DNA from: Malacoraja senta
Taxonomy: Eukaryota
Direction of reading: 5' to 3'
NCBI GenBank assembly: GCA_038087875.1
Contig: CM075996.1
Coordinates: 5,024,001-5,088,000 of the forward strand
Length of the DNA stretch: 64,000 nt
Shown piece by piece: positions 2,231 through 57,126 of the stretch (the first letter of the stretch is position 1; each line of letters opens with the position of its first letter). A program made the position numbers and the translations under genes. The notes under the pieces are model-generated. The model did not search any database and had not been told where the DNA came from. It worked only from the letters and a program-made list of their open reading frames with translations.

Positions 2231-3646
2231 GGATCTTCCTCCGCAAATTTTGTGGAGGCAACAAGGCAGCACTGCTCAGTTTGAATGTTACAAGAAACAA
2301 TTAAACATGAGATACATTGCTTTTTCTGTCCACAACTTGTGCAACAAAAGACATAAATTCATACAACATAGAACAGTAAAGCACAGGAATAAGCCCTTCA
2401 GCCCACAATGTCGGTGCTGAACACGATGGCAAAATAAACTATCAGCTGCCTGCACATGATCCATATCCCACCATTCATGCATATATATGAGTATCTAGAC
2501 GCCTCTTAAACACCATAATAGTATCTGCCTCCACCACCACCCATAGCAGCACATTTGAGCACCCTCCAACTTCTGTGTAAAAACAATAACCCTGCACATA
2601 TCCTTTAAAATGCTTTATACATTCAAATCAAAATACGAAAGTGTTCATATTTTCAGTTGAAACCCATTAATATTCAGAGTCGGAGCATGGAAATAGGCCC
2701 TTCAGCCAAACTCGTCCATGTCAACCAAAATGCCCCATCTAAGCTGGTCCCACCAGCCCATATAGCTAGCCTCTCAAGCCCGGGGTACATCTTCTCTACA
2801 CTATTTCCAGCTTAACGACATCCTCCTATAGCAAGGTGTGCAAAATCGAACATAGTACTCCACATGTCGATTCAAAAACATCATGTACAACTAACATAAC
2901 ATCCCTACTTCTATTACCAATACCCTGACTGATGAAGACCAATATATCAAACACCTTCTTGGCCACCCTATCTACCTGTGACACTACTTTAAGGGAACTA
3001 TGTGCTTTAACTCCTAGATCCCTTGCTATATAACATGCCCCAAGGCCCTACCATTAACTGTGAAGGTCTGCTTCTACTTCCCAAAATACAACTAGTTGCA
3101 CTTATCTGTATTAAACTCCATTAGCCATTCTTCAGCCCACTTGATCTTGCCTATTGTAATTTTCCTACATAGTCCAAAGATTTCAAAAAAAAATTCAGGT
3201 TATTGGACTGTAGATTTCTGCACACTTTCCATTGTTTTTTTTAATGAAAATTAAAATGTTAATCACGTCATTAGTTCTTGATAAGATGCATAACTAACAG
3301 TTAAAACAGCTTCCAAATAATTTTGTGACAAGTGTTTCTCCTAGTTGTCAAGAAAGTGAATTTACACAGATATTTTACTGTCTTTCCACACTAAAATTAA
3401 ATTTAGAGATAACTGTTACCAAAAATCATGGAGATTAGCATTATCCAAGTAATTCTGTATGATCAAGATTGCCTCAGTACTCTTACTGAACAAATCGTGT
3501 TAAATGGTATAGCAGATTGACAGGACATGGTTAAGAAGAGGTTGAAATAAAGTTTAATTAAACCATTAAGTACTCTGCATAACAAAATATTGAACTAAAC
3601 ATTTTCACAAGGCAATCAATTGCTTCATGTTAACTAAGTACAGTGA

Positions 3647-3734
3647 AGAAGGGTTTCGGCCCGAAACGTTGCCCGTTTCCTTCGCTCCATAGATGCTGCT
3701 GCACCCGCTGAGTTTCTCCAGCATTTTTGTGTAC
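3647..3734 (+). mobile_element. ~90-bp Penelope-type terminal unit with hammerhead-like motif and 13-bp TSD
   Basis: TGAAGAAGGGTTTCGGCCCGAAACGTT core. Flanked by direct repeat CTAAGTACAGTGA (3634-3646, 3735-3747). Confidence 0.7.
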
Positions 3735-4976
3735 CTAAGTACAGTGATGTTGTTTAATATCTTTGGCATCGCAGGGTTAGGAAAATCAGACCCCAATTGT
3801 AATGCCAGTTGACTGGTGCTGCAATAATACATGTGGATTAATAATTTGACAAAAAGATTCCCTACATCGTAGGAGCTTTATTATAAAACTGGGAGATAAT
3901 GGAAAACAGGGAAGGCAGGTAGGGAAGAAAACTAGAAATAAGCTGGGCAATGTGCAACGTTTACTCTAAGGGCCACAACAATACTGTTCTGAACTAAATT
4001 AAAGAATTTCACATTTTATTACATTAAAACAGCATGTACCAGCTACTATTAAATGTATCGATTTTCATAAATTTCCCACTAAATTACCTTCATGCTGCTG
4101 AAAATTAAAGCTTTAACGTCTTTGCATCAAATCAAAGACAATTCCTTAAAATTCTATTCACCTGCATTATGCAACATTTATTGTAAAGCTACAGTAGAAT
4201 AGATTTGCCAGTTTATTGTACTGAATAAGTGGAGTCCCTCAATTGGAAAGAGTTAAATCACTGACATTATAAACCCAATGCAACAATCATGGCCTGATTA
4301 AAAGTTTCTATCTTTGTCATATATATATATGATTTATAACCTGTGTTTAACCTAACAATAGTTGGACAAATTTTAACATGCCAAGTCCTACTTAGCCATT
4401 ATGTTTGTGCTTAATGTCCCAACACCTCATCCAGCAGCACAAAAATCTTCATCCTTTCTGGTCTTTGCCTTCCTCATCTCTGCAGCTTCCTTCAGCTATT
4501 GAACCAAGAGTTTCCATTTGTAGCTCCATTTTCCTCAGCTATCCAATAAATGAAAGATAAATGGCTACTACAAAATATCTCTTACTGCAGATACAGGGCA
4601 TAAAGAATCAGATGTGGTACAGCCATGAGAGGAGTAAGTTGCAGAAGTGCAGGGAAATAAAGAAATGAGATACTAGAATTGTTTGATTGGGAACAATGTG
4701 CACCTGATGCACCAAATGGCTGTCTTGTGTACCAAGGGCAATCAAATCTCACAAATCAAGTTGCCTTTTCAATTCTACATTCTTGTGCCTTTTATTCTAT
4801 GCAAATATTCTCTGGACAAACAGCTAATATACAAGCTGCCACAACTCCCCAAATTTTCCAACTTTCTACTGTTCCCTTCCTTAAATATGCTCTTTAGAAT
4901 CTATCATTTTATAACATTCCGTGCCATCCACAATGTTATCACCCTCTGTGGCTTTGTCAATAAAAGGTTGATAATA

Positions 4977-8300: not shown

Positions 8301-11300
8301 TTCCGCTAACTGGTCGTTTTGTAGACAATCCAAGATTACCAATGAGTGACATACTTTGAAAGTATTGCACATCTTCATTTCATCAAAGCAGCATGCTGTA
8401 GCATTCTGTGTTATTAATGTTTATGAAGAAGCTTCCTACTCAAGTTGCAAAAAGCTGCAAACAGATAACATTAGAACATACACAACATTATTTAATGGGG
8501 AAAGTGTGCTTTGGGCCCAGAAGCTATTCTGTGTTTCAGACATGAAACTACACAACACAAAACAATATATATTCTACTGAGAAACTGCTTAAATTCTAAC
8601 ATGACCAAACTGGCATAAAATGGTCAATACTGAGCCTGATCTTGAAAAAATAGTCTGAAATGAAATTCACTACAAAAAAGATCTATGCATTACATACATG
8701 CAGTTCATTAGTTTGGAATCATAGCAGTGTTGATCCATAATACATCATTGGGAAAACTATAGAACTATGTTAAATGTCTTGACAACACATTAATCCTATC
8801 TTACATTAATATGCTTAGTTAGTTACACTCAAATTAAATCACCATTACAACCAAGAAATCAATTTCCTGAGAGACCCTTTTCAATAGAACTGAAATTGGC
8901 AGTGGTGATGGTTGATGGTGATGGGAAAGGTTGTTGTTGATGCCAAACTGAAATAACCAAGATCTGACTTTCACGAATGGTGATCTATATCACCATCTCT
9001 ACAATCTCACCAAAAGCATTAGCAGGAGCCGAAGAACCACTGTCAATGCTCAAGTTCAAGGTCTCTGGTAATCAACATGCCTTTGAAGTTAGTATACCGA
9101 AACAGGCATTTGACAGATTTTTTCCAAAGTTTGTGCAGGATTGCAAGTTCAATATCCACCTACAAACATTAAATATCTGACAAACAAATACCTCGCTAAC
9201 TTTGAAACTCAGATTATGGTGCACTGATTTAAATAATTGCCACTGACAACTACCAGGGTTTAACACAAGGTTTACGATTGCTATTTCTTCAACAAATTTA
9301 ATAATTACTCAATTAAATACTACCAAGAATAGTTTTACCTAACCATAAACTTCGTTACAAAGTTGCTGTCTTACTCATATTTGCTACTTTGTTCGAAACG
9401 ATCATGAAAGAAACGCACGAAAGAATATATCTCCCATTAGGTTTCTTTTTTCACTGCACTAGATTCACATAGTACAGGTAATATCTTGAAAATGTAGAAA
9501 CAAGGAACAGAAGATGCTGGTTAAAGTACAAATGGACACAAAGTGCTGGAGTAACTCAGCAAGCATCTCTGGACGGTACACAAAAATGCTGGAGAGAGTT
9601 TCTCCAGCATTTTTGTGTACCTTCGATTTTCCAGCATCTGCAGTTCCTTCTTAAACACAAGCATCTCTGGACAACATGGATAGGTGACGTTTCGGGTCAA
9701 AATCCTTCCATCAGTCTGAAGAAGGTTCTCAACAAGAAATGTCACCTATCCACGTTCTCCAGAGATGCTGCCTTTACCAGATACATCTCTGGATTATCTA
9801 TAATTTTTTTAAATGATAAAAGGTAGTGATACTATTCATGTAGTGGAAGAGACAAATAAAAGAAATTCATATTATAAACTAGTAAAATATGATAAGATGG
9901 ATAATTTCCCCAATAATTTTTTTAAAAAGAAATCCAAGGTTGCCTAGATTAAAAGCTATTAGAGGAATTCTGAAGACTGCATTTATGAACAAAGGTAAGC
10001 ACGGTTATCTTGCATGCAACAAGTCCCATAATTGTCATTTTTGAGGAAACAAACTCCAAATAACAAATTGATTTAAAGTATACAATTACAAACCCCCAAA
10101 ACTAGTTTTATATGATAACTGAAACTTAAAGCACAGTGGAAATTAATTTTTAATTATTTTTATATAATTCTCTAAGAGAGAACCAAGTACATATAAAGTT
10201 GATGTAGTGAATCCATTTTGCCATGAAAAACTAACAGGCTAAAGTTAATGGTTTGGAACATTAAAGTTGAAGAAACGGAGTAACACCAAGCTTAGCGAAC
10301 ACCACAAGACGAAGTGGGTGGTGGACCAATACTTGAACCCACTAATACTCCACCATCGCTGACCATATACCATGAAGCAGATTGAAAAACAGTTGCCAGA
10401 AAACTCAAAAGTGATCTGACCATATCAATAGAAATTATTTTGAATTGTAATGAGGCTGTGACTACTTCATTTTCAATAAGATTTTGCTTGAAGAAAACTA
10501 TGGAATGCAAGTTCCATCTCACCTCATCTCACTAGGCTGAAATCATTTAGCTAAAACTGATGTTGGAGTTACTGTCAAGTTACTCGAGGAAATCTTTCAC
10601 TTGTGAAGTGTCCTCTATTTGGATTTTTAGTAAGCTTAAAGTAGCATTCCAATTGGCTGAAGATTACTGTAGAACAAAGTGCAGTTTCATTCACCTCACA
10701 GCACCAGCGCCACTGCTGCAAAGTGAATTATCAAAAATATAACTACATAAAAAGATGGAATCCAAAGTAACAAATGTTTTTAAATTAAAAAATAAATCAA
10801 CCATACGCTTGCACCGAATTCTCTGCACCAAAAATTGACCCAGGTTTTGCCATATATAACCTTTTCTTCACAACTGAGCTAAATTTTGCTGGTCTTTCAA
10901 TTCAATTTCAATATATTTAAGATAATGCAAGATATAACAAGAACACTGTTAGAATTATTTCCAATGACAAGAAAACAAATTACACAAATGTGTGTAAATG
11001 ATCTTGTGTTAAAGTATGAAGACAACATACCGGAACTTCTCAGTCAAAACTTTATTTCCATGAAATAGAATCAAATACATATAGATATATATACACATCG
11101 TAATCAACAGTTAATTTTGGAAATCTCTCCGAATTAGATTTGTATTCATATTCTTGTTGGGGACAAGAAATTAAGCAAAGCTTGTTGCATATTCCCAAAG
11201 TGAAAACATGCCTTCTTCAAAAGGTTTCATATCTTTTACACACAGGTGCAAATTCAGCTAAAACAGCCTAATAATATGCTGAACAATAATATTAAGCATC

Positions 11301-11989: not shown

Positions 11990-13230
11990 AAGCACAAACT
12001 AAGTGGCGAAAGAGAAAGGTTTACACGGTACCTGTGCCATCGCTGGTCGGAGGAGCTGGGGAGGAGATTTTAGGCCGCTTGGCTGAAGGCGGTCCGTCCA
12101 GGAGATTCTCTGCCATTTCTTCCCCAATTTTAAAATTACACGTTTCAACTTTTTTTCCCCTCCCCAAAAAAAACGTAGAGGGAGAAATTTAAAAAAAACG
12201 CACGGACCCTCGCGAATTAATCGGTGGACTTGGCTCCTTTGCTCAGCCCCCACTGCCTCTCTTCGCTGGGGCAATTTTATACCTTATCGCTAAAGTCTTG
12301 TGTGGAGAGAGAGAGAGAGAATGAGCCTAAGGCCTACGGCCAGGCCCAGGCTTTCTAGGTCGATCGTCCATGGGCACCAGAGAGAAAAAATAAGAACGGA
12401 AAGGGGAGCGAAAATAATTAAAGAAAATGAAAGACCAAGCACAACGGCGTCTCCGGCGAAAACCGCATCCTAAATCACCTCACGACCGTCTTTCCTTCCA
12501 CATTCCCGACACCAAGAGGGGGAGAAAAAAACCCTGTCAGAAAAAAAAAACCTTTAAAAAAATTCCCCCTCTCGATCCAATAAAGCGAGAACGATTCATC
12601 CACCGTCCCTCAAGAGAAAGCCTCCGCTCTTCACGGGAGCAAAAAACCCAGGAACCGTTGTTAAATCACTCGAAATGTTTCGGCATTTTCTTCTTAGTCT
12701 ATCATTTTAAATTTTTTTTAAATAACGGACGGTGGAGTCGGCAAAAAGATGAGGCTTTTTTTACAGTACTACTTTTTTTCCTCCCTGCTGTTGAATTCGT
12801 ATTGCTGATTATATATTTTGTTAGTTTTCTTTTGTTTCCCCCCCCACCCCCCCTCCCAGCCTTTTTCCTTTTCTTCTTCGTCCTTTTCTCTTCCTTCCTT
12901 TCCCCCCCACCCCCTCCCCTGCCCTCAATCCACCAAGCCGAGCGAAGGATCTCTCCTCTCTCCCTCTATCGCCCGCTTCTCGCCGTCTCCCCGTCTCCGT
13001 CTCTCTCCCACCAAACAAAATGGCGGCTTGTTGTTCTCTCGGCGAGCGCAGCGACGTAAAAAAAAAAGACCCGCCGCGCTCGGCCAAAGTCGTCGCCGGC
13101 TGCCGGAAATGGCCGATGTCTCCGCCTCACGTGACCCGCGCGGCTGCCTCCCATTCGCCGGCGGGCGGTGCATTACGTCATTTAACTCCATCGTCCCCAG
13201 GCGAAAGCTCTCTCCCTTCTGCAACGGGAG
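11990..13230 (-). promoter_or_regulatory. CpG island promoter and 5' UTR of the p300/CBP gene
   Basis: CpG-dense, non-repeat sequence. YY1 consensus CAAAATGGCGGC 13016-13027, ETS-like CCGGAAAT ~13103, E-box TCACGTGAC 13127-13135, GC box GGCGGGCGG ~13160, CRE-like TTACGTCA 13173-13180. Confidence 0.8.
12032..12116 (-). CDS. EP300: First coding exon of a p300/CBP (KAT3) histone acetyltransferase, most likely EP300
   Basis: Minus strand from ATG at 12116 reads MAENLLDGPPSAKRPKISSPAPPTSDGT plus 1 nt, then ACAG|GTACCG donor (phase 1). Resembles human EP300 (MAENVVEPGPPSAKRPKLSSP...SDGT) and CREBBP (MAENLLDGPPNPKRAKLSSP...NDST). PPSAKRPK and SDGT favour EP300. Not in the ORF track because it is short. 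Confidence 0.85.
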
Positions 13231-13938
13231 AGTGGACTGGAGGTGATTTTTTTTTATATTAAATGGGTGCGCAGACCTTTTTGCAAAAAAATAAAATCCA
13301 TTTTTTCCCCTTATTCCAGGAGGTAAAACATAATGCAATTGCGCGTTGTTTCCATCTGTTTAATAATTTTGCATTATGATAATTTTTCACTAAAGGAACT
13401 ACATTTTTTCCTCCCTACATAGCAGTACACTTAATATCTATTTTTTTCTTCTTCTGTAGAATATACTCAATTGAACTCCATCTCTGAAATAAATGTATTG
13501 GGTTGTGATTGTACTCACTAACGTCCTTTTCCAATAAGGAAAAAAACATGGATAAAGGAATGATGGAAGCAAAAAAAATCCATTAAATAGGAATTGTAGA
13601 TACTGTATCTCCAATTTAGAGTCGAGCAATAAAAATATTACAATATTATTTCAAAAGTATATTTTAATTTCCTTTTAAAACACAATGCAATGAAAACACA
13701 GAACTAAACTGACTGCCATACACAGTTTTTCTGTTGGTATGTATGTATTATTCTCACACTTATGGAGATATGGTGATAAAACCCTATCCAGGCATACCAT
13801 ACATGAATACGTCAAGGTCGTGCAAAAGAAGAAAAAAGTCCAGAATATAGTGGTGCAGCCACATAGAAAATGCAGATTAAACAAAGTGCCACGTGGTAGA
13901 TTGGAAGATCGGGAATTTATCCTTAGGATAGGAGATGG

Positions 13939-14155
13939 ACACAAAACGCTGGAGTAACTAGCAGGTCAGGCAGCATCTCTGGAGAAAAGGAATAGGTGAC
14001 GTTTCGGGTTGAGACCCTTGTTCAGAGTCTGAGGAAGCGTCTTGCCCCGAAACGTCACCTATTCCTTTTCTTCAGAGATGCTGCCTGCCCGCTGAGTTAC
14101 TCCAGCTTTTTGTGTCCATCTTCGGTTAACACCAGCATCTGCAGTTCCTTCCTAC
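13939..14155. repeat. Inverted (palindromic) pair of Penelope-type terminal units
   Basis: CTGGAGTAACT...GGTGACGTTTCGGG...TTCAGA followed by its reverse complement TCTGA...CCCGAAACGTCACC...AGTTACTCCAG. Confidence 0.75.
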
Positions 14156-14169
14156 ACACGTAGGATTTG

Positions 14170-17100
14170 AGCGATCTGTTCAAAAGTGATAACGGGACAA
14201 AGCTGTTGCTGAATCTGAGGGTACATGCTTTCAAGCTTTTATAATCTTCTGCCTGACCAGGAGAAGGGAGAAGAGAGAATGACCAGGGTGTGAGTGGTTC
14301 TTGTTATGATTATGTTGGCTGCTTTCCCAAGGTAATGTGTAGTATAGATCGGGTCAATGGAATATGGTAAAGGTAGGTTTGCACGATGGACTGAGATGTG
14401 TTTACTGCAATTTCTTGCCACCAGCTGTGATGCATCTGGATCGGATGCTTTTTATGGTGAATCCGTAGAAATTGGTAAGAGTTGTTGGAAAATATGCCAA
14501 ATTTCTTGAGCCTTATGAGGAAGAAGCATTGGCATGCTTTCTTGGCCATAGTATCAATGTGTTGGACCAGGACAAATGGTTAGTGATGTTTGCACCTAGG
14601 AACATTAAGCTCTTGACCATCTTCACTCCAGCTCCATCGATGCAGACTGGCACGTGTACTCCACTCTGCTTCCTGAAGTCAATGACCAGCTTCTTCATTT
14701 TGCTAACATTGAGGGAGAGTATGTTGTCTTGAAACCATGCGACTGAGCTATCTTCCTTCTTCCTGTACTCTTCCTCGTCATTGTTTGAGATCTGGCCCAC
14801 TACCGTTGCTGTCATCTGCAAACCTGTAAATGGAGTTAGAGCTGTATTTGGCTGCATTGTCATGAGTTTACAGGGAGAACAGTAAAGGGCTGAATACTCT
14901 GCCTTGTGGTGCACTGATGTTCTGAATTATCACAGAGGATGTTTTGTCGCCTATCCTCACTGATTGCGATCTCTAAGTTAGGAAGTCAAGGATCCAGTAC
15001 TAAAGGGAGTGCCGAGTCCTTGGTCCAAGAATTTGGAGATGAGTTTGATTAGAATTATGGTGTTGAATGTGAACCTAATGTCAATAGTCAAGAGGGTGGG
15101 TGGTGAGTTTATGGAACAAGCCAGAGGAAATAGTTCAGGCAGGTACAGTAACAGCATTTAAAATACATTTTGATAGGTGCATGGATAGGAAAGGTTATGA
15201 GCCAATCAAGTCAGGTGGGAGAAGCATAGATGGGGCATCTTGGTCAGCATGGGACATTCGATATTATATGACTAGGGTGGTATATGACTAATATTCGATA
15301 TTCGGGCGGCATGGTGGTGCAGCGGTAGAGCTACTGCCTTACAGCACCAGAGACCCGGGTTCGACTGACTACGTGTGCTATCTGTACAGAGTTTGTACGT
15401 TCTCCCTGTGACCTGCGTGGGTTTCCTCCGAGATCTTCATTTTCCTCCCACACTTCAAAGACATACTGGTTTGTATGTTAATTGGCTTGGTAAAGAGTGT
15501 AAAATTGTCTCTAGTGTGTGCGGGGTAGTGCTAATGTGAGGGGATCGCTGGTTGGTGTGGACCTGATGGGCTGAAGGGCCTGTTTCCCTGCTGTATCTCT
15601 AAACTAAACTAGACCCTGACACCAAATAGGCGTCTGACCTGGGTGTCCTTGTTATTCAAATGTTACAGGGATGAGCGCAATGCCAGGATGGCATCTGATG
15701 TGAACCTGTTGCGGGGGTAGGTGAATTGCAGTGGTTCAAAGGCAGCCTGGAGGCTGGACTTCATGCACGTTGTGACACTCCTCTCAAAGCACTTCATGAT
15801 GGTGAATGTCAGCCACCGGATTGTGGCCGTTAAGGCATGCAACTTTATTTTTCTTTAACACTGGGATGATGGCAGTGGTCTTAAAGGAGGTGAGAACCTC
15901 AGATTGGAGTAGGCAGAAGATAAAGATGGCTGCAAATACTCCTGCCAGCTGGTCCATGCAGAACCTGAGGACACGGCCAGGGACTCCGTAAAAAATTATT
16001 GATTGTTGAAATTACTTATTTTTGATGTCCCCACCCTGTTAAATTATTTTCTGTGCCAGTGTTTCCTAATAGAGTCAAAGTGGTACAGAGTGGAAACAGG
16101 CCCTTTAGCCCAACTTGCCCACACCTGCCAACATGTCCCAGTTACACTAGTCCCACCTGCCTGTTTGGTCCACATCCCTCCAAACCTGTCCTATCCATGC
16201 ACCTGTCTAACTGTTTCTTAAACGTTGAGTCCCTGCCTCAACTGCCTCCTCTGGCAGCTTGTTCCATACACCCCCCACCCTTTGTGTGAAAAAGTTACCC
16301 CTCAGATCCCTATTACATTTTTTCCCCTTCTCCTTAAACCTATGTCCTCTGGCCCTCGATTCACCTACCCTGGGCGAGAAACTCTGTGCATTTATCCAAT
16401 CTATTCTTATGATTTTAAACACCTTGCGAGCCTTCCACAATCAACATGTGTCTGTGTGGTTAGTCTGGACCTCCAGCTTGGTTTGAAATTGTCGCCTGGC
16501 ATTCTTGATGGCTTTGGGATCAGTTCAACACCCGAGATTGGGTCTTCATTAGGGAGTAAGTCTCATGGTTCATTCATGGTTCATCCACAGATTGAGCTGT
16601 CTGGCACGCAGGCCTTCGCACGCTTATCGATGAAGTCTGTCACAACAGTGGCATTCCCAATTAAGACAAAGTGCTGGAATAACTCAGTGGGTCAGGCAGC
16701 ATCGCTGGAGAACATCTCCGGAGAACGTTTTGGGATGGGACCCACCTTCAGACTGATTGTAGGAGGAGGGAGAAAACTGGAAGAGAGGTGGGGGTCAGGA
16801 TAAACCCTGGGAAGTGATAGGTGGAAACATGAGGGGGGGGGGGTATAGATGATTGGCACATGGTTGGATAATGGCCAGAGATGAAAAGACAAAAAGTGTG
16901 AGATAAGGAGATAAGGATGGAAGTGTGAAATATGAAGCCAGAGGAAGAAATACAGGTGGAAGAAGAGCAGGGAAAGAGAAAGGAAGAGATGGATGCACAT
17001 CCAGGTGGGGCACAGGGAAGAGAGGGGGGGGGGGAAGAGGGAGGAAAAAAGTAGCAAGGGGGTTGTTTATCTAAAATTGGAGAATTCAATGTTCATAACA

Positions 17101-18465: not shown

Positions 18466-20257
18466 CATTGATTGGCAGAATAACATTCGCGCTGCAGGTA
18501 GTAGGACCACTTCTATATTACATATTCCAGGGAGCAGGACCTCACCAATACCACCATGTCCAAGCACCACGAGCCATTGATTATGAAGCAGTCGCCTCTG
18601 TCTCCGCAGTCTGAAGAAGCTTCCCGGCCCAAAACATCACCTATCCATGTCTCATATCCAAAAGATGCTGCCTGATCCACTGGGATACTCCAGCACTCTG
18701 TGTCCCTCTGCCTCTTACCTTGCCCGACAACACCACTGATCTGGGATTATACGAGGAATCTACATGAAACATCATGGAAAGGTGAGCCGAGTGAATAGAC
18801 AGTCTACGCAGACTTGTTTAACTCAACTCAATTAGGAGAATCAGAGATTAATTAGCCTTTGTTTGGAAAAAGATAGGCAAAAAATAGCAGCGTCGTTTCC
18901 AATCCTAGCTGGGGATGAGCAATCACTGCGGGAAGTGGACTTTGTGTGTACATCAGCCCCGGGTTCACACTAAGATGCTGTGTGCTTGACAAGCCCCTGA
19001 TATAAAAGCTGGTGGGTGAGCAATGGCCACGATGTAGATGGAATTGTCTGTCATCTCGGAAATGATGCCTTCAGGAACAATCTGGTGAGGAAAAGATTTA
19101 AAAAGGGAACATTAATCTGGAGTGGTCACCTTGGACAACAAATATTGATAGGTATTAATAGAGGTGATGATAGCGAGAGTAATAATAAATAGAAGGGCGA
19201 GTATAAACAATTAATATTATAGCATTGCATTGAATTCCCCAATTTTAGGTAACCTCTAACTAAACCCCCTCCCCCCCCATATTTTTCTGCCAAAACCCTC
19301 TCTTCCACTCTCTCTCCTCCTCCCCCCCCCCCTCCCCACCCTGCTACTCGGGCCATACCTGGACTTTGACTTATTTCTTCCCTTCCCTCCCCCCCCCCCA
19401 CTCCCCTCCCTGCTACTTTCCTCCCCTGGCTTTACAATCCCCCGCTCATCAAACCTGCCTCACACCCAATGTTCTTTCCACTGGCCTTCTGCCAGTCGAA
19501 AACCCCTTTGCCTCTGTTGAGCTACTACAGGTCATGCTGTGTCTTGTCTCCCCTCACACCTCTACAATCAGTCTGAAGAAAGATCTCGAGCGGAAACGTT
19601 ACCTATTCATGTTCTCCAGAAATGCTGCCTGATCTGCTGAGTTACTCCAGCACTTTATGTCCTTTTGTGTAGGGACCAGCATCTACAGTTCCTCGTTTCT
19701 ACATTCTAGTATTACAATTAACAGCACAGGCCCAAATGTGAAAGTAAATCTATAGACTCATGTCCCAGACTGATCCGTCCCTTCACCTCTTTCTGCCAGC
19801 TACCTCCCCTCTACTCCATCATACTGAAGAACGATCCTGATTCACAATGTCATCGGTTCTTTTCTGTCCACAGATGCTGCCTGACCCACTGTGTTCTTCC
19901 AGTAGTCTCTTGTGTCTCCTGTATGACCATGTCCATAATGGTAATAGTGGTGTTTAAATAATGTATTATCATGAGCAAAAGAATATCAAAATGTATTCTA
20001 GTTGGGAAAACTAGCATGCCCCATTACCTGCACCTAGTCCTCACTATAAGACAGGGATGCAACCATCTACCCCTAATTCAACCAGGCTATCATTATTTAC
20101 ATCCTGTACCATTGATCTCAATACAAACAGCAAGCTTCAACAGACGTTACTTGGCCTGATATTATCAAAAAAGATAAAAATTCATGTTAAAATAACATAT
20201 TCAAGATGAACCATCAAACCATATATTAGATCACAATGACAACCCTATGTCACTTTA

Positions 20258-20866
20258 AAGATAGACAAAAGTGCTGGAGAAACTCAGCGGGTGCAGCAGC
20301 ATCTATGGAGCAAAGGAAATAGGCAACGTTTTTGGCCAAAACCCTTCTTCAGACTGATTTAGAGTTGGGGGGGTGGGGAGAAGAAAGGAGAAAGGAAGAG
20401 GAGGAGCCCGAGGGCTGAGGGAGAGCTGAGAAGGGGAGGAGACAGCAAGGGCTACCGGAAATTGGAGAAGTCAATGTACAAGCCGCTAGGGTGCAGACTG
20501 CCCAAGTGGAATATGAGGTGCTGCTCCTCCAATTTCCGGTGGTGCTCACTCTGGCCATGGAGGGGGCCCAGGGCAGAGAGGTCGGATTCGGAATGGGAGG
20601 GGGAGTTGAAGTGCTGAGCCACAGGGCGATCAGGTTGGTTAATGCGGACCGAGCGGAGGTGTTCGGCAAAACGATCGCCAAGCCTACGCTTGGTCTCACT
20701 GATGTAGATCAGCTGACATCTAGAGCAGCAGATGCAATAGATGAGGTTGGAGGAGGTGCAGGTGAACCTCTGTCGCACCTGGAACGGCTGCTTGGGTCCT
20801 TGAATGGAGTCGAGGGGGGAGGTAAAGCGACAAGTGTAGCATCTCTTGCGGTTGCAAGGGAAAGTG
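20258..20866 (-). mobile_element. Penelope-like element 3' remnant: GIY-YIG endonuclease plus terminal unit
   Basis: ORF 20452-20778 FTCTSSNLIYCICCSRCQLIYISETKRRLGDRFAEH...VAQHFN...EQHLIFHLGSLHPSG is a PLE GIY-YIG domain. It is followed on the same strand by the CTGAAGA...AAACGTT unit. Confidence 0.85.
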
Positions 20867-23800
20867 CCCTATGTCATTTTAAATGGGTGCCATGTAGTTT
20901 AGAGATCAAGTTAACAACTTCTAGCACTGAGGAGTTTTTTTTTAAATACAAGGTTTAAAAACAGAAGATCCCAGTTTTCAGTTTGATCAATTTATTAATG
21001 GTGACCCAGTGAATTGGCAGATGAATATGAATCTAAAATTAGCAATAATTTTGAAAGGATTGGGCGGCATAATGGCGTAGCTGACGAGCTACTGCCTCAC
21101 AGCACCAGAGACCTGGGTTCGATCCTGACCTGGGGTGTTGTTTGTGCGGAGATTGCAAGTTCACCCTGTGACTGCTGTTAGTTTAGTTTAATTTTGAGAT
21201 ACAGCACGGAAACAGGCCCATCGGCCCATCGAGTCCATGCCAACCCACACATTATCACTATCCTACACACACGAGGGACCATTTTACACATACACTAAGT
21301 CAACATACCTGTACGTCTTTGGAGTAATTGGCCTCTATAAAATTGACTCTAGTGTGTATGGAGTGGATGAGAAAGCGAGATAAAACAGAACGCGTGTGAA
21401 CAGGTGATCGACGGTCTGCGTGGACTCGGTGCGTTGGAGGACCTATTTCCATGCTGCATCTCTAAACATGAACAAAAATAAAACATGAAATTAAATACTG
21501 GTACCCGATTCTCTTCAAACGGGTCTCAATAATAATTCATACAACCTGAGAGGAGCAAACACACGGTGAGGTTGAATGGCTATAATTAATCTAACATTTT
21601 ATTTCCAAGATTCATCAACGTACTGCTACAAGATTTCGTATTGAGATATCAAACAGTCAAATGCCAGAAACGTTTAAACTTTGAACAATCTCAGGTGAAG
21701 AAGCTTCTTAAGGGAGGCGAGAATCTGTTACTGATCCTGATCGCTATCCAGTAATTCAGCACTAGAAAATCTACTCATTGACGTGTACACAGTTCTAGAT
21801 CTGTACCGTTTGATGCACACGAAGGGAAAATAATCTTCCAAGTGTGTCACACATAAAGATCTCTGTCCATTTCTCCCGGTTCCCTTTCCCCTGATTCCCA
21901 GTCTGAAAAAGGGTCTCGACCCGAAGCCTCACCTATTCCTTTTCTCCAGAGATGCTGTCTGACCCGCTGACTTACTCCAGCCTTTTGTGTCTATCTTCAG
22001 TTTAAACCAGCATCTGCAGTTCCTTCCTACACGTAAAGAAGTGTTGTTTGGGTGAAATACCAAGAGAACACAACAGTTGCATACAGCTCTGGTAAGACCA
22101 CATCTGGAGTATTGTGTACAGTTTTGGTCTCCTTCAACCAACAGTTGACTATTATTGAAGTCAAAAGTATCTGTTTAATAATTAGTAGCTAAAATTGCGA
22201 TATATACATGATATGTTATAATGAAATATATAGGGTAGAATTGTATTATATATCTGAATGTGAGGCCCCGTTTTAATATTTTAATATGTTATGATTAACC
22301 AAGAGAGCGGAGCTATTTGTTTAACATCACAATGGAAGTCGAAACAAGGTTTTTTCCCACCTACAGGTGGGCCACTTGCTACAGTGCCGACTATATTAGA
22401 CACTGTATTTTCACTTTTTTAATTTTTTTGTTATTACCACATAAACTCACATGTTTGTGTTTTGTGTTTAGTGATAAGCGTAAAATGGATATACCAACAA
22501 AACTTAGAAATTCAAAAGTTCCCCCAATACCCAAAGACCTGGGATATGGATGCACCACAAGATTTAAAGGTACTATAATTATTCAAAATGCAAGATGCTA
22601 AACAAAAGAACCTAGGAGGAATCTTATTCTGTAGTTGGAATATAAGAGGTATTAACGAACCTATTAAAAGGGGTAAGATACTAGTTCAGCTGAAACTGTA
22701 CAACTCTGACATTATCTTCTTACAAGAAACTCATTTAAAATCTCAGGATCAAGCTAGGTTGAGGGCGAAATGGATAGGTCAAACATACCATTCTTCATTT
22801 ACTTCGAAATCTAGAGGTACGTCAATCATTATAAGAAAAGGTATACCATTTAAAGCAAAGAATATCATAACAGACATCGAAGGGAGATACTTAATAGTTA
22901 ATGGAGAAATTCATGATACTTCAATTATCTTGGTAAATATATATGCGCCTAACTTTGACAACCCTCATTTTTTAAATAAAATTTTGAACATAATTGCAGA
23001 GTCTAACTATCAAAATGTTATAATAGGAGGAGACTTTAACTGTGTTTTAGATCCGTATTTAGATAAATCAAGCCAAAAACAGAGAGGGAATATGAAATCT
23101 AAAACTGGTGAACTTCTCAATACTTACATAAACAATACTAATATAGCAGATGTTTGGAGAATTGTTAATCCAACTGGCAGGGAATACTCGTTTTATTCAA
23201 TGGTACACAAAACATACTCGCGTATAGATTATTTCCTGCTGGATACAAAATTAATCCCCCATACTTTTAACCCAACATACCATACAAATTCGAATTCAGA
23301 CCATTCTCCACTAACTTTCTTTTTAAAACTGGAAGGAATGTCTAAGAATAAATCGTTTTGGAGATTTAATTCTCAAATCCTAAAAGATCCACAAGCGAGT
23401 ATATATTTAAAAGAACAAATGGATGCCTTTTTTCAAATAAATGACACTCCAGATATATCGTCTACTGTATTATGGGAATCTTTTAAAGCATACATTAGGG
23501 GTATTATAATTTCATATCAAGCTTTTCAAAATAAAAAGAATAAGAATGAACAAAGACAGTTAGAAGAACTTATTAGACAAATGGATATAGATAATGCTAA
23601 AGATCCATCAATAGATAAACATAATAAAATAATAATTTTGAAATTTAAATTAAATAAACTATTATCAGCCAAACTTATAAGACTTTTTCAAATTACAAAA
23701 CAAGAGCACTTTGAATTTGGGGATAAACCGCATAAACCTTTGGCTCGCCAGCTAAAAAAACGAGAAAAATAACATACTATCCCAAAGATTAAATCAGATA

Positions 23801-24677
23801 AAGGGGAATTATTAACCACACCGAAGGATATTAATAAAAGATTTGCGCAATTTTATGAGAATTTGTATACATCTAAAACGACAATTGATTCCAATAAAAT
23901 CATAGAGTTTTTGGATAATTGTAATCTTCCAAAGTTAGAGTTGAAGGAACAAGAGGAATTGGGTGCACAAATCTCAATTAAGGAATTAGAAGATACAATA
24001 AACTCACTAAAGAATGGAAAAACACCAGGTCCTGATGGATGTACTAATGAATTTTATAAAAGCTTCTATGATAAAATTATACCAAGATTACAAAAAATGT
24101 ACCAATATGCTTTTAAAAAACAAATACTACCTGATACATTAGCGGAATCAACGATTACACTAATACTTAAGAAAGACAAAGATTTAGAAGAACCGGGTTC
24201 ATATAGAGCTATAGCATTGTTAAACACAGATTAAAAAATATTAGCGAAAACATTAGCTAGAAGATTAAGTAAATATATTAGTAAATTAATAAACCCAGAT
24301 CAGACGGGGTTTATCCCTAAGAGATACTCATCTAACAATATGAGACATTTACTCAACATAATGCACTCACACAAATCTGAAGAACAAGAATTATCAATTA
24401 TTTCGCTGGATGCTGAAAAAGCATTTGACCAAGTAGAATGGAATTATATGGATAAAGTATTACAAAAATTCCAACTGGGAGAGAATTTTATTCTATGGAT
24501 TAAATTATTATATAATAAACCTACAGCTAGAATATTAACTAATAACATATTATCCTCGAAATTCCAACTATCAAGGGGAAATAGACAAGGATGCTCATTA
24601 TCACCACAGTTGTTTGCTCTTATTATTGAACCGCTAGCAGAAAAAAATTAGAATACACCCTGATATCCATGGGTATA

Positions 24678-26293
24678 CAGTGGCTTGCAAAAGTATTCAT
24701 ACCCCTTGAACTTTTCCACATTTTGTCACGTTACAACCACAAACGTAAATGTATTTTATTGGGATTTTATGTGATAGACCAACACAAAGTGGCGCATAAT
24801 TGTGAAGTGGAAGGAAAATGTTACATGGTTTGCAAATTTTTTTACAAATAAAAAACTGAAAAGTGTCGCGTGCAAAAGTATTCAGCCCCCCTGAGTCAAT
24901 ACTTTGTAGAACCACCTTTCGCTGCAATTACAGCTGCAAGTCTTTTGGGGTATGTCTCTACCAGCTTTGCACATCTAGAGACTGAAATTTTTGCCCATTC
25001 TTCTTTGCAAAATAGCTCAAGCTCAGTCAGATTGGATGGAGAGTGTCTGTGAACAGCAATTTTCAAGTCTTGCCAGAGATTCTCAATTGGATTTAGGTCT
25101 GGACTTTGACTGGGCCATTCTAACACATGAATATGCTTTGATCTAAACCATTCCATTGTAGCTCTGGCTGTATGTTTAGGGTCGTTGTCCTGCTGGAAGG
25201 TGAACCTCCGCCCCAGTCTCAAGTCTTTTGCAGACTCTAACAGGTTTTCTTCCAAGATTGCCCTGTATTTGGCTCCATCCATCTTCCCATCAACTCTGAC
25301 CAGCTTCCCTGTCCCTGCTGAAGAAAAGCATCCCCACAGCATGATGCTGCCACCACCATGTTTCACAGTGGGGATGGTGTGTTCAGGGTGATGTGCAGTG
25401 TTAGGTTTCCGCCACACATAGCATTTTGCATTTAGGCCAAAAACTTCAATTTTGGTCTCATCTGACCAGAGCACCTTCTTCCACATGTTTGCTGTGTCAC
25501 CCACATGGCTTGTGGCAAACTGCAAACGGGACTTCCTATGGCTTTTTTTCAACAATGGCTTTCTTCTTGCCACTCTTCCATAAAGGCCCGATTTGTGGAG
25601 TGCACGACTAATAGTTGCCCTGTGGACAGATTCTCCCACCTGAGCTGTGGATCTCTGCAGCTCCTCCAGAGTTACTATGGGCCTCTTGGCTGCTTCTCTG
25701 ATCAATGCTCTCCTTGCCCGGCCTGTCAGTTTAGGTGGATGGCCATGTCTTGGTAGGTTTGCAGTTGTGCCATACTCTTTCTATTTTCGGATAATGGATT
25801 GAACAGTGCTCCGTGAGATGTTCAAAGCTTGGGATATTTATTATAACCTAACCATGCTTTAAACTTCTCCACAACTTTATCCCTGACCTGTCTGGTGTGT
25901 TCCTTGGGCTTCATGATGCTGTTTGTTCACTAATGTTCTCTAACAAACCTCTGAGGCCTTCACAGAACAGCTGTATTTATACTGAGATTAGATTACACAC
26001 AAGTGGACCCTATTTACTAATTAGGCGACTTCTGAAGGCAATTGGTTGCACTGGATTTTATTTAGGGGTATCAATGTAAAGGGGGCTGAATACTTTTGCA
26101 CGCGACACTTTTCAGTTTTTTATTTGTAAAAAAATTTGAAAATCATGTATCATTTTCCTTCCACTTCACAATTATGCGCCACTTTGTGTTGGTCTATCAC
26201 ATAAAATCCCAATAAAATAAATTTACGTTTGTGGTTGTAACGTGACAAAATGTGGAAAAGTTTAAGGGGTATGAATACTTTTGCAAGCCACTG
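24678..26293 (-). mobile_element. Full-length Tc1-family DNA transposon (IR/DR type)
   Basis: TA|CAGTGGCTTGCAAAAGTATTCA...TGAATACTTTTGCAAGCCACTG|TA. ~210-bp inverted repeats with an internal direct repeat GCAAAAGTATTCA. 1616 bp long. Confidence 0.97.
24896..25914 (-). pseudogene. Tc1 DD34E transposase, N-terminally disabled
   Basis: Starts MKPKEHTRQVRDKVVEKF at 25914. Frameshift near 25840 and in-frame TAG near 25782. The remainder is open, with [14 protein letters not shown] and SPDLNPIE (34 residues between D and E). Confidence 0.92.
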
Positions 26294-28336
26294 TAATACT
26301 AAAGATTCAAATAATAAAATATCTTTATACGCGGATGATATATTACTGTACATTACAAAACAGTAATCACTCAAATCACTATACCAAATATATTAAATTG
26401 AATTGAAGACTTTGGATCTTTTTCTGGATACAGATTAAATTGGAATAAAAGTGAACTTATGTCAATAAAACCGAAAGATTCAACACATCTTTTAAAATTC
26501 CCTTTTAAAATAGCTACAGAAAAATTTAAATACTTGGGAATCGAAATTACTAGAACATATCAAGGTATGTTTAAAGCAAATTTTGATCCCCTACTTAATA
26601 AATTAAACACACAAATTAAATTTTGGAAAACGCTCCCAATGTCTTTATTAGGCCGAATAAATGCAATAAAAATGATCTTTCTACCACAAATTTTATACCT
26701 ATTTCAATCGATTCCTATATACTTACCATAGAAGTTTAAAAAAAAACTGGACTCAGATATCACTAATTTTATATGGGACTATAAATCACATAGAATACAA
26801 AAAACTCACTTGAATAAACCTAAAGTATTAGGGGGTTTAGCACTACCTAATTTCATGTATTATTATTGGTCAGTAAATATTAAAAATATGATTCAACTGA
26901 TGGATAACTCTGCCCAGCAAGTGGACTGGATTGTAATGGAGAAAGAGGATTGCTCCTCTGGAAACATTGGAGCGATCCTCCTCTCACCAATGAATCTGAA
27001 TAATATAAATTATAATAAGAACCCAATTATACATAGCACAATCCGAATTTGGAAACAAATAAAACAAAATTTAAAATTAAGAAATTTATCACTTTTATCT
27101 CCCATAGTTAATAACCCTTTGTTTAATCCCTCTACTATAGATACATCTTTCACACATTGGGATAGACTAGGAATTAAAACGTTCGGTGACTTGTATGAAA
27201 CTGGAAAATTACTTTCATTTCAACAATTACAAATAAAATATAAACTCGGAAATAATCAATATTTTAAATATTTTCAAATATGCGACTATTTGAAAAAATA
27301 TACAAAAGATCATTATAATAGCCCAGCAGATGTATTGGATGATGCAATGCAGATAAAAGCTGAATCAGCAAACTTAATATCATATTTGTATAATATTATC
27401 TTAAATGTAGAAATACCATCTACGGAGGGTATCAGAAGAGACTGGGAACAAGAGTTAGCTATTAAAATTTCAAAGGAAAGGTGGAATGAACACTTATTAA
27501 ACGTGCATAAATGTTCGATTAATGTAAGACACACTTTAATACAATTTAAAATTTTACATAGATTATATTATTCCAAAACTAAAATCCATAAAATTTTCCC
27601 AAATGTATCATCCATTTGTGATAAATGTCAATCCCAAGAAGCTACTATAGCGCACTCATTTGTTTTCTGTACAAAAATCCAAAAATTCTGGATTGAAATT
27701 TTCAAAATCTTTACAAAATTATTTAAAATAAAACTGATACCCAAAGCAGAATGGATTATCTTCGGAATAACGGAAGATGGTCCAGAACTAAATGTGTTTC
27801 AAAAGAAACTAATAGACTACGGGTTAATAACTGGAAAAAAGCTAATCCTAAAATTTTGGAAGAAGGCTCCAATACCAACTATAAACATGTGGATTTCAAA
27901 TATGTTCAAACATTACACCTAGAAGAGATAAGACTCCTCCTGGCAGGTAAACCAGATCACTTCCACCTGACGTGGTCTGCATTTATAGAATTATTACAAA
28001 TATAGGGTGCAAAGGTACCTTAAAAAAAAAGTGAGGTCAGGTAAGGGGGGATGAAAGTTGGAGAGTTGGTATATCCCATTTGCGTAATGCTCATAAAAAC
28101 TATTTGTTTTTCTCTTTTCCCTCTTTCTCTTTCTCCTTCTTTTCTAGGGTCTATTTCTTAACTCTTTTTCTTTTGTTTTTAATTTTGTTCTTATAGGGTC
28201 TTCGTTCTTTCTTGTTGTCACATTTTCTACACTTTCACTTTTTCCTTCACTTTCTTCATTCTCCCAATCTCATCCTTTCCCTTTAAAAAAAATCCACAAA
28301 ATAAATTTTTAAAAAAATTAAAAAAATATAAAAAAA

Positions 28337-31894: not shown

Positions 31895-32870
31895 TCCTCA
31901 AAGTCCGAAGGCTGTGGGTTCAAGTTCCTGTCCAGAAACTGGAGCAGCAAATTGGAGCAGCACAGAAGAAGCATCAGTCTGAAGAATGGTCCCAAAGCAA
32001 AACATTACCTATCCATGTTCTCCAAAGATGCTGTCTGACCCGCCGAGTTACTCCAGCACTTTGTGCCTCTTTTATAAGCATATGTTTCTGTTGGAGTTGC
32101 CATCTTTTCAAATAGGTTATTTAATCAAAGTGTCATCTTCCCAAACGATGAAAACACATGAAGATACGGCAGAGGTGACTTCGATGAGATGGCCAACATC
32201 ACAAAAAACAAGAGTAGATACAAAGAACTGCAGATGTTGGAATCTCAAGCAAAAAACCACAAAACAGTGGAGTAAAAGTGTACGAAAGAACTGCAGATGC
32301 TGGTTTAAAACGAAGGTAGACACAAAATGCTGGAGTACCTCAGCTGGTCAGGCAGCATCTCTGAAGAACATGAATAGATAACGTTTCGGGCCGGGACCCT
32401 TCTTCAGATTGAATTAAGGTTCCAATCCTAAACTCACCTTTCCATGTTCTCCAGAGATGCTGCCTGTCCCGCTGAGATACTCCAGCGCTTTGTGTTTTTT
32501 GCTTAAGATTCCAACATCTGCAGTTCTTTGTATCTACTCGTTTTTTTTGGTGATTTTTTCATATTGCATAAAAGAAATAGTTTGGTTACTTAAAATGCAA
32601 GCAGAAAATGCCAAGCATACTTGGGCCAAGTACAATTTGTGACGGGGTGGTGGATAATACCGCAGTTAACCTTTCAGGAACACGACTTTTGATAAACAAA
32701 ATCTTAAAAGATAATCTCTGCATTAAACACCCAGAGATTTCCAGTGTTTGCGGTATCTTACTTACATTTGGTCATGTGTTGCACACAAATTGGCTGCCAC
32801 GTGTCCTGTGTTACAGTGGCGATTTCACTTCAAAAGTCATTCCCTAGCTAGAAAACAAAGGTGTCCTGGG
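31895..32870 (+). mobile_element. Old, fragmented Deu-domain SINE (SacSINE1-like)
   Basis: Head GTGGGTTCAAGT...CCAGAAACTGGAGC, middle GGAGTTGCCATCTTT, Deu-like CACAAATTGGCTGCCACGTGTCC...CACTTCAAAAGT at ~32780-32836. Interrupted by Penelope-type units. Confidence 0.5.
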
Positions 32871-34910: not shown

Positions 34911-36261
34911 TTAAACATTCCTGTCAAAAATGTTGCAGAAGCTTTAAGAACTACCATTCATTTATCTTATGGGAATGCCAGTCGATTACTAAGGCATGCT
35001 GTTGGCCTGCAAGTCTCCATTTTATGACTCTCTCCTATGCTTGCTGAACCATTGTCTCTTTAACCAAGAGGCCAGCACTGTGCAGCACATATAATAAACT
35101 TAGCAAATGCTAACATTTGCAGAAATAAATACATGGAACAACGGCTTGAGAAAGAGCTTCACCAGTAAATGGTCAGTGCTGCGCAGGTGCTAAGGACAAT
35201 GAGGATCAAGTTCTGAGAACTGTGGAAATGGAAAGAATAAGGACAGCTTGTTCTTGGCCGAGCTTCAGATCACAGCGTGCTTTGCATGGCAGAGAGTTGG
35301 CCCTATGTGGTCTATTCAAGAGCTTCTAGCGGATTGCAAGAGATAGAGTGGACTTGCCAAACTAGCTTGTGCAAGGAGACAGATATTGCAGATTGGTGCC
35401 ACATTCAAGAGATTGTCTTAAGGAGAGAATGTAAAACATATCAACTATGGAATCAACCTCTCTACTGGCAGGCAAGTTGAGTCTAATCATTATTTAACTG
35501 GTTTTACCATAGCCTCCAGTGCTGCACTACTAGTACATTATAGTTTTGGACATAAAGGGTACAATTAGCAAGCTATTATTTTACTGAGACAGTTAATTTC
35601 TGTGCCACAACTCTTTTTACTGCGTGCTGGTTTATACCACTGTATTGACTGCATCACAAGTACGCATAACTTTATGTGTAGCAAAGAACTACAGATGCTG
35701 GTTTAAATCGAAGATAGCCACAAAATGCCGGAGTAATTCAGCAGGGCAGGCAGCGTCTCTGGAGATTCAAGATTCAAGAGAGTTTGTTGTCATGTGTCCC
35801 TGATAGGACAATGAAATTCTTGCTTTGCTTCAGCACAACAGAACATAGTAGGCATTGACTACAAAACAGATCAGTGTATCCACATAACATTATACCAGTG
35901 TGCCCATATACCAGAGAAGGCGCAGACAAAATGTGTAGGAAAGAACTGCAGATGCCGGTCTGAAGAAGGGTCTCGACCCGAAACGTCACCCATTACATCT
36001 GTCCAGAGATGCTGCCTGTCCCGTTGAGTTACTCCAGCATTTTTTGTCTAAGCGTAACTTTATTCAAGTTAATCCACTCAAAACATTATTTTAAGTACTC
36101 ATCTCTCGCAGAGAAATGAACTGAACAGCAGACTAACATTATAATTGTGATAAAAGTCATGAAATTGGAAATAATGGTTGAGGAATAGAGAGGCAGAACT
36201 TTGAACCCCTATCCTTGCCCACTTCAGGATTGTAAGAAGTTGTATGGGTTTCCGGTGTTGG

Positions 36262-40932: not shown

Positions 40933-41005
40933 CACCCCAGGTGAGGCTCAAACCCACAACCCCTGGCTTAGGAGGCCAGTGTCTTATCCATTAGGCCACC
41001 GGGGT
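40933..41005 (-). tRNA. tRNA-Arg(CCT), probably a pseudogene
   Basis: Minus strand ACCCCGGTGGCCTAATGGATAAGACACTGGCCTCCTAAGCCAGGGGTTGTGGGTTTGAGCCTCACCTGGGGTG (73 nt). Acceptor and anticodon stems pair, anticodon CCT. The T-loop reads GTTTGAG instead of GTTCGAG and there is a D-stem mismatch. Confidence 0.75.
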
Positions 41006-56510: not shown

Positions 56511-56846
56511 ACAGATGGCGCAATGGGCTAAGTGTTCGGCTGGCAACCGGAAGGTAGCTGGTTCGAATCCCGCTTGGAGTGCATACTGTCGTTGTGTCCT
56601 TGGGCAAGACACTTCACCCACCTTTGCCTGCGTGTGAATGTGTGTGAGTGATTGGTGGTGGTCGGAGGGGCCGTAGGCGCAGATTAGCAGCCACGCTTCC
56701 GTCAGTCTGCCCCAGGGCAGCTGTGGCTACAGAAGTAGCTCACCACCACCGAGTGTGACTGAGGAGTGAATGAATAATGCGATGTAAAGCGCCTTGAGTA
56801 TTAGAAAGGCGCTATATAAATCCAATCCATTATTATTATTATTATT
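56511..56846 (+). mobile_element. tRNA-derived CORE-type SINE with L2 tail
   Basis: A box TGGCGCAATGG, B box GGTTCGAATCC, CORE-like GTGTCCTTGGGCAAGACACTT, L2 tail TGTAAAGCGCCTTGAG...AAAGGCGCTATATAAAT...(ATT)n. Confidence 0.8.

Positions 56847-57074: not shown

Positions 57075-57126
<52 letters not shown>

Follow-up and report, generated by a model that had tools for sequence, protein, structure and literature searches.

Short insertions of a Penelope-like terminal module in a skate genome share a 5' hotspot at the front edge of a hammerhead motif

Our study concerns a family of short inserts in a 64-kb stretch of the genome of the skate Malacoraja senta (GenBank assembly GCA_038087875.1, contig CM075996.1, positions 5,024,001 to 5,088,000; hereafter the window). 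Seven of these are real insertions of the terminal module of a Penelope-like element (PLE), bounded by target-site duplications (TSDs). Their 3' ends fall at two sites, while the 5' ends of the five single inserts, together with those of many further copies of the module, cluster at a hotspot that forms the front edge of a minimal hammerhead motif and lies 30 nt upstream of its predicted cut site; the short copies form no lineage separate from the long ones. We propose, and give an even chance to, a model in which the inserts are dead-end run-off cDNAs, primed inside the RNA and terminated at its 5' end.

Positions in the module are counted on the sense strand, with +1 as the T of TCTGAAGA, 0 as the preceding G and -1 as the A before that G. 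On this numbering C3 of the hammerhead is +2 and the predicted cut falls between +29 and +30.

The inserts and their target-site duplications

An earlier note on this DNA had listed seven short inserts, and an automatic search found each of them in place and flanked by direct repeats (Table 1). The exact TSDs measure 10-15 bp in six cases and 7 bp in one; that of the insert at 9575 is 15 bp, one longer than had been noted. The identical search at 390 random intervals returned repeats of at least 10 bp at one interval, of at least 13 bp at none and of at least 7 bp at 19, so that the 7-bp duplication taken alone is weak evidence. All five single inserts have one end near the (C)TGAAGA core, as described before, with 5' ends at +3 to +6 (3647), 0/+1 (47668), +3 (55398), -1 to +2 (57629) and +1 (60255), where the ranges reflect microhomology with the TSD. 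The two inverted inserts do lack the core, their internal breakpoints lying at +69/+74 (9575) and +38/+50 (59407). In the former the left arm stops at the first 3' site and the right arm carries a tail, and the outer ends of the latter are the same two sites.

The insert at 3647 is 96.5% identical to the long copy 55757-55970, and that at 60255 is identical to it over +6 to +90. The insert at 55398 sits within an older Penelope 3' untranslated region (UTR) fragment and has lost C3 and the ACGT palindrome; the insert at 57629, nested in an older module copy, is the sole single of the five with a whole motif; and the insert at 9575 is nested in an older head-to-head pair (9491-9779). Deleting the insert and one repeat at 9575 and at 57629 restores a host that is alignable over the junction with many other copies, as is required of a true TSD; the host module is continuous across one TSD copy, and this paralogue test for an empty allele is clean at both sites. 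At 59407 and 55398 the test is loose, and at 3647, 47668 and 60255 it yielded no result.

No empty orthologous site was found for the five short inserts, none being skipped among the 15 joints listed of 16,064. Contigs from four public runs were placed on positions 54900-60750 of the window. The host LINE (long interspersed nuclear element) that holds the insert at 59407 seems absent from organisms B and C, since their contigs exit the window after 59335, and the long copy 55757-55970 seems absent from organism C, since a C contig runs on unlike the window beyond 55746; because that contig enters the tail of the insert at 55398 by 30 nt, this insert may be shared with organism C. An organism B contig spans 57137-57658 with 30 gap positions.

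Module copies and their 3' ends

A profile built from the copies in the window, with a model that ends at 131, gave 51 module hits that together cover 4,541 bp, or 7.1% of the window; shuffled and reversed sequence gave none. The 3' ends of these hits lie at model positions 92-102 in 20 cases, at 125-131 in 17 and elsewhere in 14, and past model position 131 the copies share nothing. The two sites are about 35 nt apart, which corresponds to the known optional tail of 30-40 nt. Mapped against the CTGAAGA core, the ends show two 3' sites and the 5' hotspot described below. The module is also found where the earlier note had not reported it, at the end of long TSD-bounded copies (20260-20866 and 55757-55970) and in head-to-head pairs.

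TSDs were sought for nine older head-to-head pairs and found for one (12 bp, 35664-36063), the others being at chance level or absent. Within this one TSD pair lie a minus arm (+134 to +42), some 165 bp of DNA from other repeats, a minus piece that consists of the tail alone and a plus arm beginning at 0, an arrangement that looks like several template jumps within one event.

Origin of the module

On sequence grounds we assign the module to the sense-strand 3' end of a Neptune-type PLE. The Penelope origin proposed before is borne out by one TSD-bounded copy (20243-20883), in which a GIY-YIG remnant is followed by a pyrimidine-rich 3' UTR and then by the module (20353-20257), all inside a single TSD pair. 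As the remnant lies upstream on the same strand, the module is the 3' end and its CTGAAGA side is the 5' side. The remnant itself matches Pfam GIY-YIG weakly (E 0.087) and is 44-78% identical to 28 proteins, of which the best named matches come from skates (77% and 73%), followed by rays and sharks; a scan of five relatives found GIY-YIG in all five (E 8.6e-5 to 1.3e-3) and RVT_1 in three. In the Cys motif before the endonuclease, C5, C10 and C13 are invariant or nearly so across 15 aligned sequences. A zinc-finger-like Cys motif between the reverse transcriptase (RT) and the endonuclease (EN) marks Neptune and Nematis (PMC8557442, partial text), and our choice of Neptune over Nematis rests on a vertebrate survey (10.64898/2026.07.22.740005, partial text).

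The window holds no full-length partial tandem of the form pseudo-long terminal repeat (pLTR), open reading frame (ORF), pLTR, and the longest protein match is 499 aa. In the young subfamily an ATG near +50 is followed by an open frame, which in the older one is closed; for this reason we claim no ORF start. In a sample of 80 metagenome loci of distant relatives, 52 of the 68 with room for a relaxed hammerhead core have one no more than 330 nt from the EN match, compared with 16 of 400 shuffled control pieces. These relatives share the layout, with 3' ends near +90-98 and +138-151; the exact 30-nt motif has no match in the metagenome contigs.

Four gene models from skate and shark (P0001, P0002, P0008 and P0027) fuse a piece of Penelope endonuclease to unrelated host domains, through either mis-annotation or exonisation. 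A 10-bp CT-rich unit is repeated over 1.1 kb at 44479-45598; this array starts where the long Penelope copy 44199-44510 has its 5' end, and it may have been seeded by the pyrimidine-rich 3' UTR.

A 5' hotspot at the front of the hammerhead

To the set of 51 hits we applied curation by eye, which yielded 43 arms: hits at 992 and 18610 were left out as ambiguous and those at 46851, 46996, 57753 and 59098 as weak; the two halves of the host split by the insert at 57629 were omitted too. A further hit was combined with its second half, and the set was extended by one arm. The 5' ends cluster where AG meets TCTGAAGA, with 19 of the 43 arms starting at -5 to +7, 14 further downstream and 10 running on upstream. 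A strongly preferred end point, which the earlier note had suspected, is thus evident: 19 of the 29 arms that reach +7 stop within this 13-nt zone, against 7% predicted from the downstream rate. The nominal P of 1e-15 overstates the case, since the zone was picked afterwards and paired arms are not independent. If the count is limited to ends that a TSD or an inverted junction defines, 12 of 17 insertions have an arm in the zone.

Contig ends were read against the copy 56146-56407, in which +1 is 56249, 0 is 56250 and -1 is 56251, and the figures are those among the 24 loose-end rows listed of 13,965. In organisms A, B and C, respectively, 851, 1078 and 1087 contigs leave the repeat at 0 and 722, 942 and 982 at -1, in both cases to enter long (median 161-255 nt), unrelated, AT-rich sequence (agreement 0.30-0.32). 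Twelve of the 24 rows fall at -3 to +1; the peak at -3 was set aside because its loose ends are short, are shared and agree with what lies upstream in a sister subfamily. Position 0 is joined to position 0 on the opposite strand in all four runs (13, 27, 29 and 2 contigs).

Among the distant relatives, 3 of 23 second arms start at -7 to +1 compared with the 19 of 43 arms here (Fisher P 0.014), and the hotspot is therefore much stronger in the skate Penelope family. The three second arms, all from invertebrate-type Neptune relatives (L019:821-912, L023:1023-1102 and L067:3420-3484), start at +1, -7 and -4 and could be a faint echo of it. In run X18, which is possibly RNA, 81 contigs exit the repeat at +1 (56249) with weakly shared sequence that matches the 3' UTR of the older subfamily (16813-16824), a join that no canonical splice donor explains.

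A run-off model for the short inserts

In the mechanism that we propose, the GIY-YIG endonuclease of a Neptune-type PLE would nick the target in a staggered manner, giving TSDs of 7-17 bp, and the RT would start inside the RNA at +90-98 or, with the tail, at +127-131; priming from both nicked strands would produce head-to-head inserts. The transcript of a partial tandem, which we infer to start at -1/0, would carry the priming module in its first 130 nt, the stretch that served as template in the in vitro assay with the Anolis element (PMC11167929), and priming in that 5' module would yield run-off cDNAs of 93 or 130 nt. Their ends would then be joined by microhomology, at times after the loss of 1-6 nt, and two cDNAs ending at -1 could pair over 5 nt to give junctions such as those at 9709-9719 and 32404-32412. 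The hammerhead would ride along and set neither end, and the short copies would presumably not be copied again.

There is precedent for these steps in the Poseidon element studied in vitro by Frangieh et al. (PMC11167929), where reverse transcription begins within the RNA at two tail ends, both target strands are cut and extended, a shorter template 5' end gives a shorter product, and ribozyme mutants insert normally, cleavage not being needed. The two inverted inserts fit internal priming, because each has one outer end per 3' site and an internal junction. In the long copies a pyrimidine tract is followed by TCAGTCT, whose two purines are the two contig peaks, and this sequence fits the initiator consensus, YYANWYY, with -1 as its A. 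A G stands just outside the end in four window copies, and G is the first loose letter beyond -1, on the sense strand, in two of the three DNA runs; this hints weakly at a copied cap, although microhomology or subfamily variants could give the same. From a base-precise hotspot across many independent insertions follows the prediction that the RNA is capped at the A or the G in front of TCTGAAGA; this would explain the thousands of solo minimal hammerheads in vertebrate genomes and the palindromic inverted junctions.

Several points weigh against this proposal. The evidence comes from contigs, in which no RNA 5' end is observed, and, with 24 of the 13,965 loose-end rows listed and some uncounted, it includes no genome-wide background curve. 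The zone from -5 to +7 was chosen post hoc, old copies had their ends placed by eye, and paired arms do not count as independent. The signal from the young subfamily by itself is modest: 5 of 10 short arms fall in 8 nt, with a scan P of 0.002-0.047 depending on the range assumed. Since neither a full-length element nor a tandem junction was found for the skate Penelope family, we infer rather than observe the 5' module, the promoter and the ORF start. The same bases also make a good 3' splice site (pyrimidine tract, CAG) and a near-palindrome. In Drosophila virilis 46 bp and a 75-bp intron separate this position from the start site upstream of it (PMC2377424 and PMC4209133, partial texts), and the invertebrate relatives lack TCAGTC, yet 3 of their 23 second arms start at -7 to +1.

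At 51339-51352 the first four bases of an arm that starts at 0 occur three times in a row, in this one case as if the template end had been recopied by telomerase-like slippage.

The earlier note had also raised the idea of a truncation point set by the RNA fold, for which we find no support. A fold would stop the RT at its 3' side, near +33 to +49, and not at the 5' foot of the motif, where the ends are observed; moreover, the folds are no stronger than those of shuffled sequence (z -1.0 to +0.7), and no shared helix ends at 0 in six long copies.

Alternative explanations

The hotspot could instead arise at the DNA stage, an explanation that we regard as possible but improbable. The RNA would reach further upstream, and the cDNA would be cut, or trimmed and joined, near the hotspot, either at the near-palindrome (-3 to +5) or at the foot of a cDNA hairpin (about +1 to +49), with the endonuclease of the element as the cutter. 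Penelope endonucleases do act on their own pLTR (PMC11167929), the ends are ragged (-4 to +7), and three head-to-head junctions are centred on the palindrome, but the five TSD-bounded singles have no partner arm for such annealing. A hairpin of about +1 to +12 with +33 to +49 is predicted in one short young copy and in the cDNA of two older copies, whereas the cDNA folds as a whole are weak (-9.6 to -12.3 kcal/mol over 140 nt), differ among six copies and show no covariation.

A second alternative, which we consider unlikely, treats the short copies as mini-elements: those starting at -1 would keep an internal promoter, be transcribed alone and be re-copied in trans, in the manner of a short interspersed nuclear element (SINE) and without ribozyme processing. 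Their very high density and fixed 5' end would suit such a life cycle, for which an internal TATA-less promoter in the Penelope of D. virilis (PMC2377424, partial text) and the sufficiency of pLTRs for mobilisation in trans in a rotifer (PMC3846280, partial text) provide parallels. It predicts a lineage of short copies, and none emerged. In a tree of 15 short and 10 long copies over +6 to +90 the two kinds interleave, with nine changes compared with a shuffled mean of 8.0 (456 of 500 shuffles as low), at least three of them forced by well-supported branches; there is no short-only clade with diagnostic changes and short forms occur in every subfamily, although 25 distinct rows of 85 nt give this test little power. 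The interleaving, together with the identity of the insert at 60255 to the long copy 55757-55970, indicates that short copies arose repeatedly from the same sources as long ones. By analogy with Anolis, where the RNA needs ORF sequence to +172, past both priming sites, a short copy would lack what its mobilisation requires (PMC11167929).

The third alternative takes the boundary for a 3' splice site, so that the upstream 3' UTR would be an intron and a splicing product or the splicing machinery would limit the cDNA; we assign it a low probability. The pyrimidine fraction over -40 to -5 is 0.60-0.97 in ten long copies, six of which have CAG at -2 to 0, and in D. virilis the 3' boundary of the intron coincides with the 5' edge of helix I (PMC4209133, partial text). 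GT stands at the ORF stop codon in two subfamilies (20452-20455 and the 34270 area) and the long copy 55757-55970 begins there, so the whole Penelope 3' UTR could be an intron. The listed contig peaks, however, include both the acceptor G and AG and run into unrelated sequence, not into a shared exon, and the TSDs abut the module in all five singles. We know of no spliceosomal route that would free the 5' end of a second exon.

The hammerhead motif and the retrozyme question

The hammerhead-like motif recognised in the short inserts is present, and it recurs in the long copies of the window. In the insert at 3647 the core TGAAGA (3644-3649) lacks C3 and the 5' strand of helix I; it is followed by a bulged A (3650), helix II (3651-3654 with 3659-3662), GAAA (3663-3666) and the palindrome ACGT (3666-3669), with the predicted cut after 3670. 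Of the five singles, two are missing C3, a third is missing half of helix I, a fourth has its helix II weakened and the fifth is whole. Helix I of the module is only 2 bp long and helix III needs a second copy. Hammerhead pairing is maintained at 84-87%, with no covariation above shuffles, and a fold of the alignment picked another helix, not the hammerhead; Rfam at its gathering score found only a tRNA in the window and no hammerhead.

The suggestion of the earlier note that the inserts are retrozyme-like mini-elements is largely refuted by these data. Retrozymes consist of tandem units, each with a whole ribozyme (PMC7229834 and 10.64898/2026.07.22.740005, partial texts), whereas in the window tandem units are absent (0 of 23 TRF rows with period above 38, and no head-to-tail module pair among the 51 hits) and four of the five single motifs are incomplete or broken. 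The units also end in the wrong places for self-cleavage: the cut is predicted at +29/+30, but the 5' ends lie at -4 to +7 and the 3' ends near +93 and +130, none of the curated arms begins at +30, and among the rows listed no contig peak falls at the cut site. With the cut 30 nt downstream of the hotspot, the unit is not one that the ribozyme defines. Thus, even though the motif is present and animal retrozymes derive from pLTRs (10.64898/2026.07.22.740005, partial text), it is very improbable that hammerhead self-cleavage frees a unit-length, perhaps circular, RNA that is then retrotransposed.

Other features of the window

The coordinates of the Penelope features are collected in Table 1. 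Elsewhere in the window a Tc1/mariner transposon (24676-26295), bounded by a 215-bp repeat at 24676-24890 and 26081-26295, contains a 294-codon open stretch (24896-25780) with Pfam HTH_Tnp_Tc3_2 and DDE_3; it has inserted into a long LINE of L1-like type (about 22579-27922), in which the frames for endonuclease and RT show little decay. A lone tRNA-Arg(CCT)-like gene lies at 40933-41005 on the minus strand, and a GC-rich segment of CpG-island character at about 12800-13300 looks, from its reading frames, like the 5' end of a host gene.

Table 1. Penelope-derived features of the window, with module positions numbered as in the text.
Feature	Position	Strand	Remarks
Left TSD, 13 bp	3634-3646		last three bases, TGA, double as start of hammerhead core (microhomology)
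Minimal type I hammerhead motif, incomplete	3644-3672	+	read from sequence against the description in PMC4209133 (partial text)
Short insert	3647-3734	+	module +3/+6 to +93; no tail; young subfamily
Right TSD, 13 bp	3735-3747		
Head-to-head insert	9575-9657		15-bp TSD 9560-9574/9658-9672
Older head-to-head pair	13931-14159		both arms begin at 0/+1
Long 5'-truncated copy, including TSD	20243-20883	-	reaches about -513; 17-bp TSD with one mismatch
Cys-rich linker and GIY-YIG remnant	20455-20868	-	138-codon stretch
Older head-to-head pair	32278-32537		overlap at near-palindrome -3 to +5
Short insert	47668-47761	+	0/+1 to +94; 7-bp TSD 47661-47667/47762-47768; helix II weakened
Older head-to-head pair	51218-51449		right arm starts at 0
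Short insert with tail	55398-55524	+	+3 to about +128; 11-bp TSD 55387-55397/55525-55535
Long copy, young subfamily, including TSD	55747-55980	-	copy 55757-55970; to -119; 10-bp TSD
Long copy, older subfamily	56146-56407	-	
Short insert	57629-57717	-	-1 to +2 to +90; 10-bp TSD 57619-57628/57718-57727
Head-to-head insert	59407-59535		13-bp TSD 59394-59406/59536-59548; in LINE fragment
Short insert	60255-60349	-	+1 to +94; 13-bp TSD 60242-60254/60350-60362

Comparison with known systems

The element class is known, and so are the tail, the inverted arms, the palindromic junctions, solo minimal hammerheads and internal priming. Our literature search found no paper that reports a 5' hotspot with base precision at the front edge of the hammerhead or interprets one as run-off DNA, subscription papers, Repbase and Dfam lying outside the search; Supplementary Fig. 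S2 of PMC11167929, an image, may show 5' coverage steps.

The hotspot bears on three questions from earlier work, namely how PLEs rebuild their pLTR, where their transcripts start in organisms other than Drosophila and what role the hammerhead has (PMC2377424 and PMC11167929, partial texts). We offer, as a speculation with a rather small chance of being right, that PLEs routinely make a cDNA resembling strong-stop DNA: priming in the 5' module and extension to the capped start would rebuild an upstream or inverted pLTR, a process that in skates would often abort and strew units of 90-130 bp. Units starting at -1 would keep the start site, the whole hammerhead and the priming site, and might, transcribed and re-copied, become a new kind of Pol II mini-element and the seed of retrozyme arrays. 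For repeat annotation, units that cover 7% of the window could be mis-filed as SINE or retrozyme.

Non-LTR retrozymes resemble the units described here in being short, non-coding, derived from pLTRs and equipped with a type I hammerhead (PMC7229834 and 10.64898/2026.07.22.740005, partial texts). They are, however, tandem, with a complete ribozyme per unit and monomer circles, whereas our units are single or head-to-head and bounded by TSDs, and the motif is often cut off. Solo minimal hammerheads of truncated PLEs (PMC4209133, partial text) share with ours a bulged base between 9 and 10.1, the G10.1-C11.1 pair and a palindromic 15.2-16.2, and are likewise mostly single, with some close pairs on opposite strands; in contrast to those motifs, helix I here is only 2 bp and helix II 4 bp, and the boundaries of single-motif copies are mapped to the 5' edge of the motif.

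The Poseidon element PAc of Anolis (PMC11167929) likewise has two 3' ends that bound a tail, which there include the outer ends of inverted copies, and its ends are unrelated to the cut. It belongs to another clade; unlike PAc, the skate module has no ATG in the hammerhead and its targets are not clearly AT-rich, and the main text on PAc reports no genomic 5' hotspot of the kind seen here. The units also resemble 5'-truncated and inverted insertions of the EN+ Neptune PLEs (PMC8557442 and PMC3846280, partial texts), which have a GIY-YIG domain after a Cys-rich linker, a hammerhead in the terminal module, an optional tail of 30-40 nt, TSDs, an adjacent inverted copy and palindromic junctions. 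Their 5' truncation is described as variable, whereas nearly half of the arms described here end near one point, in discrete units of 90 and 130 bp.

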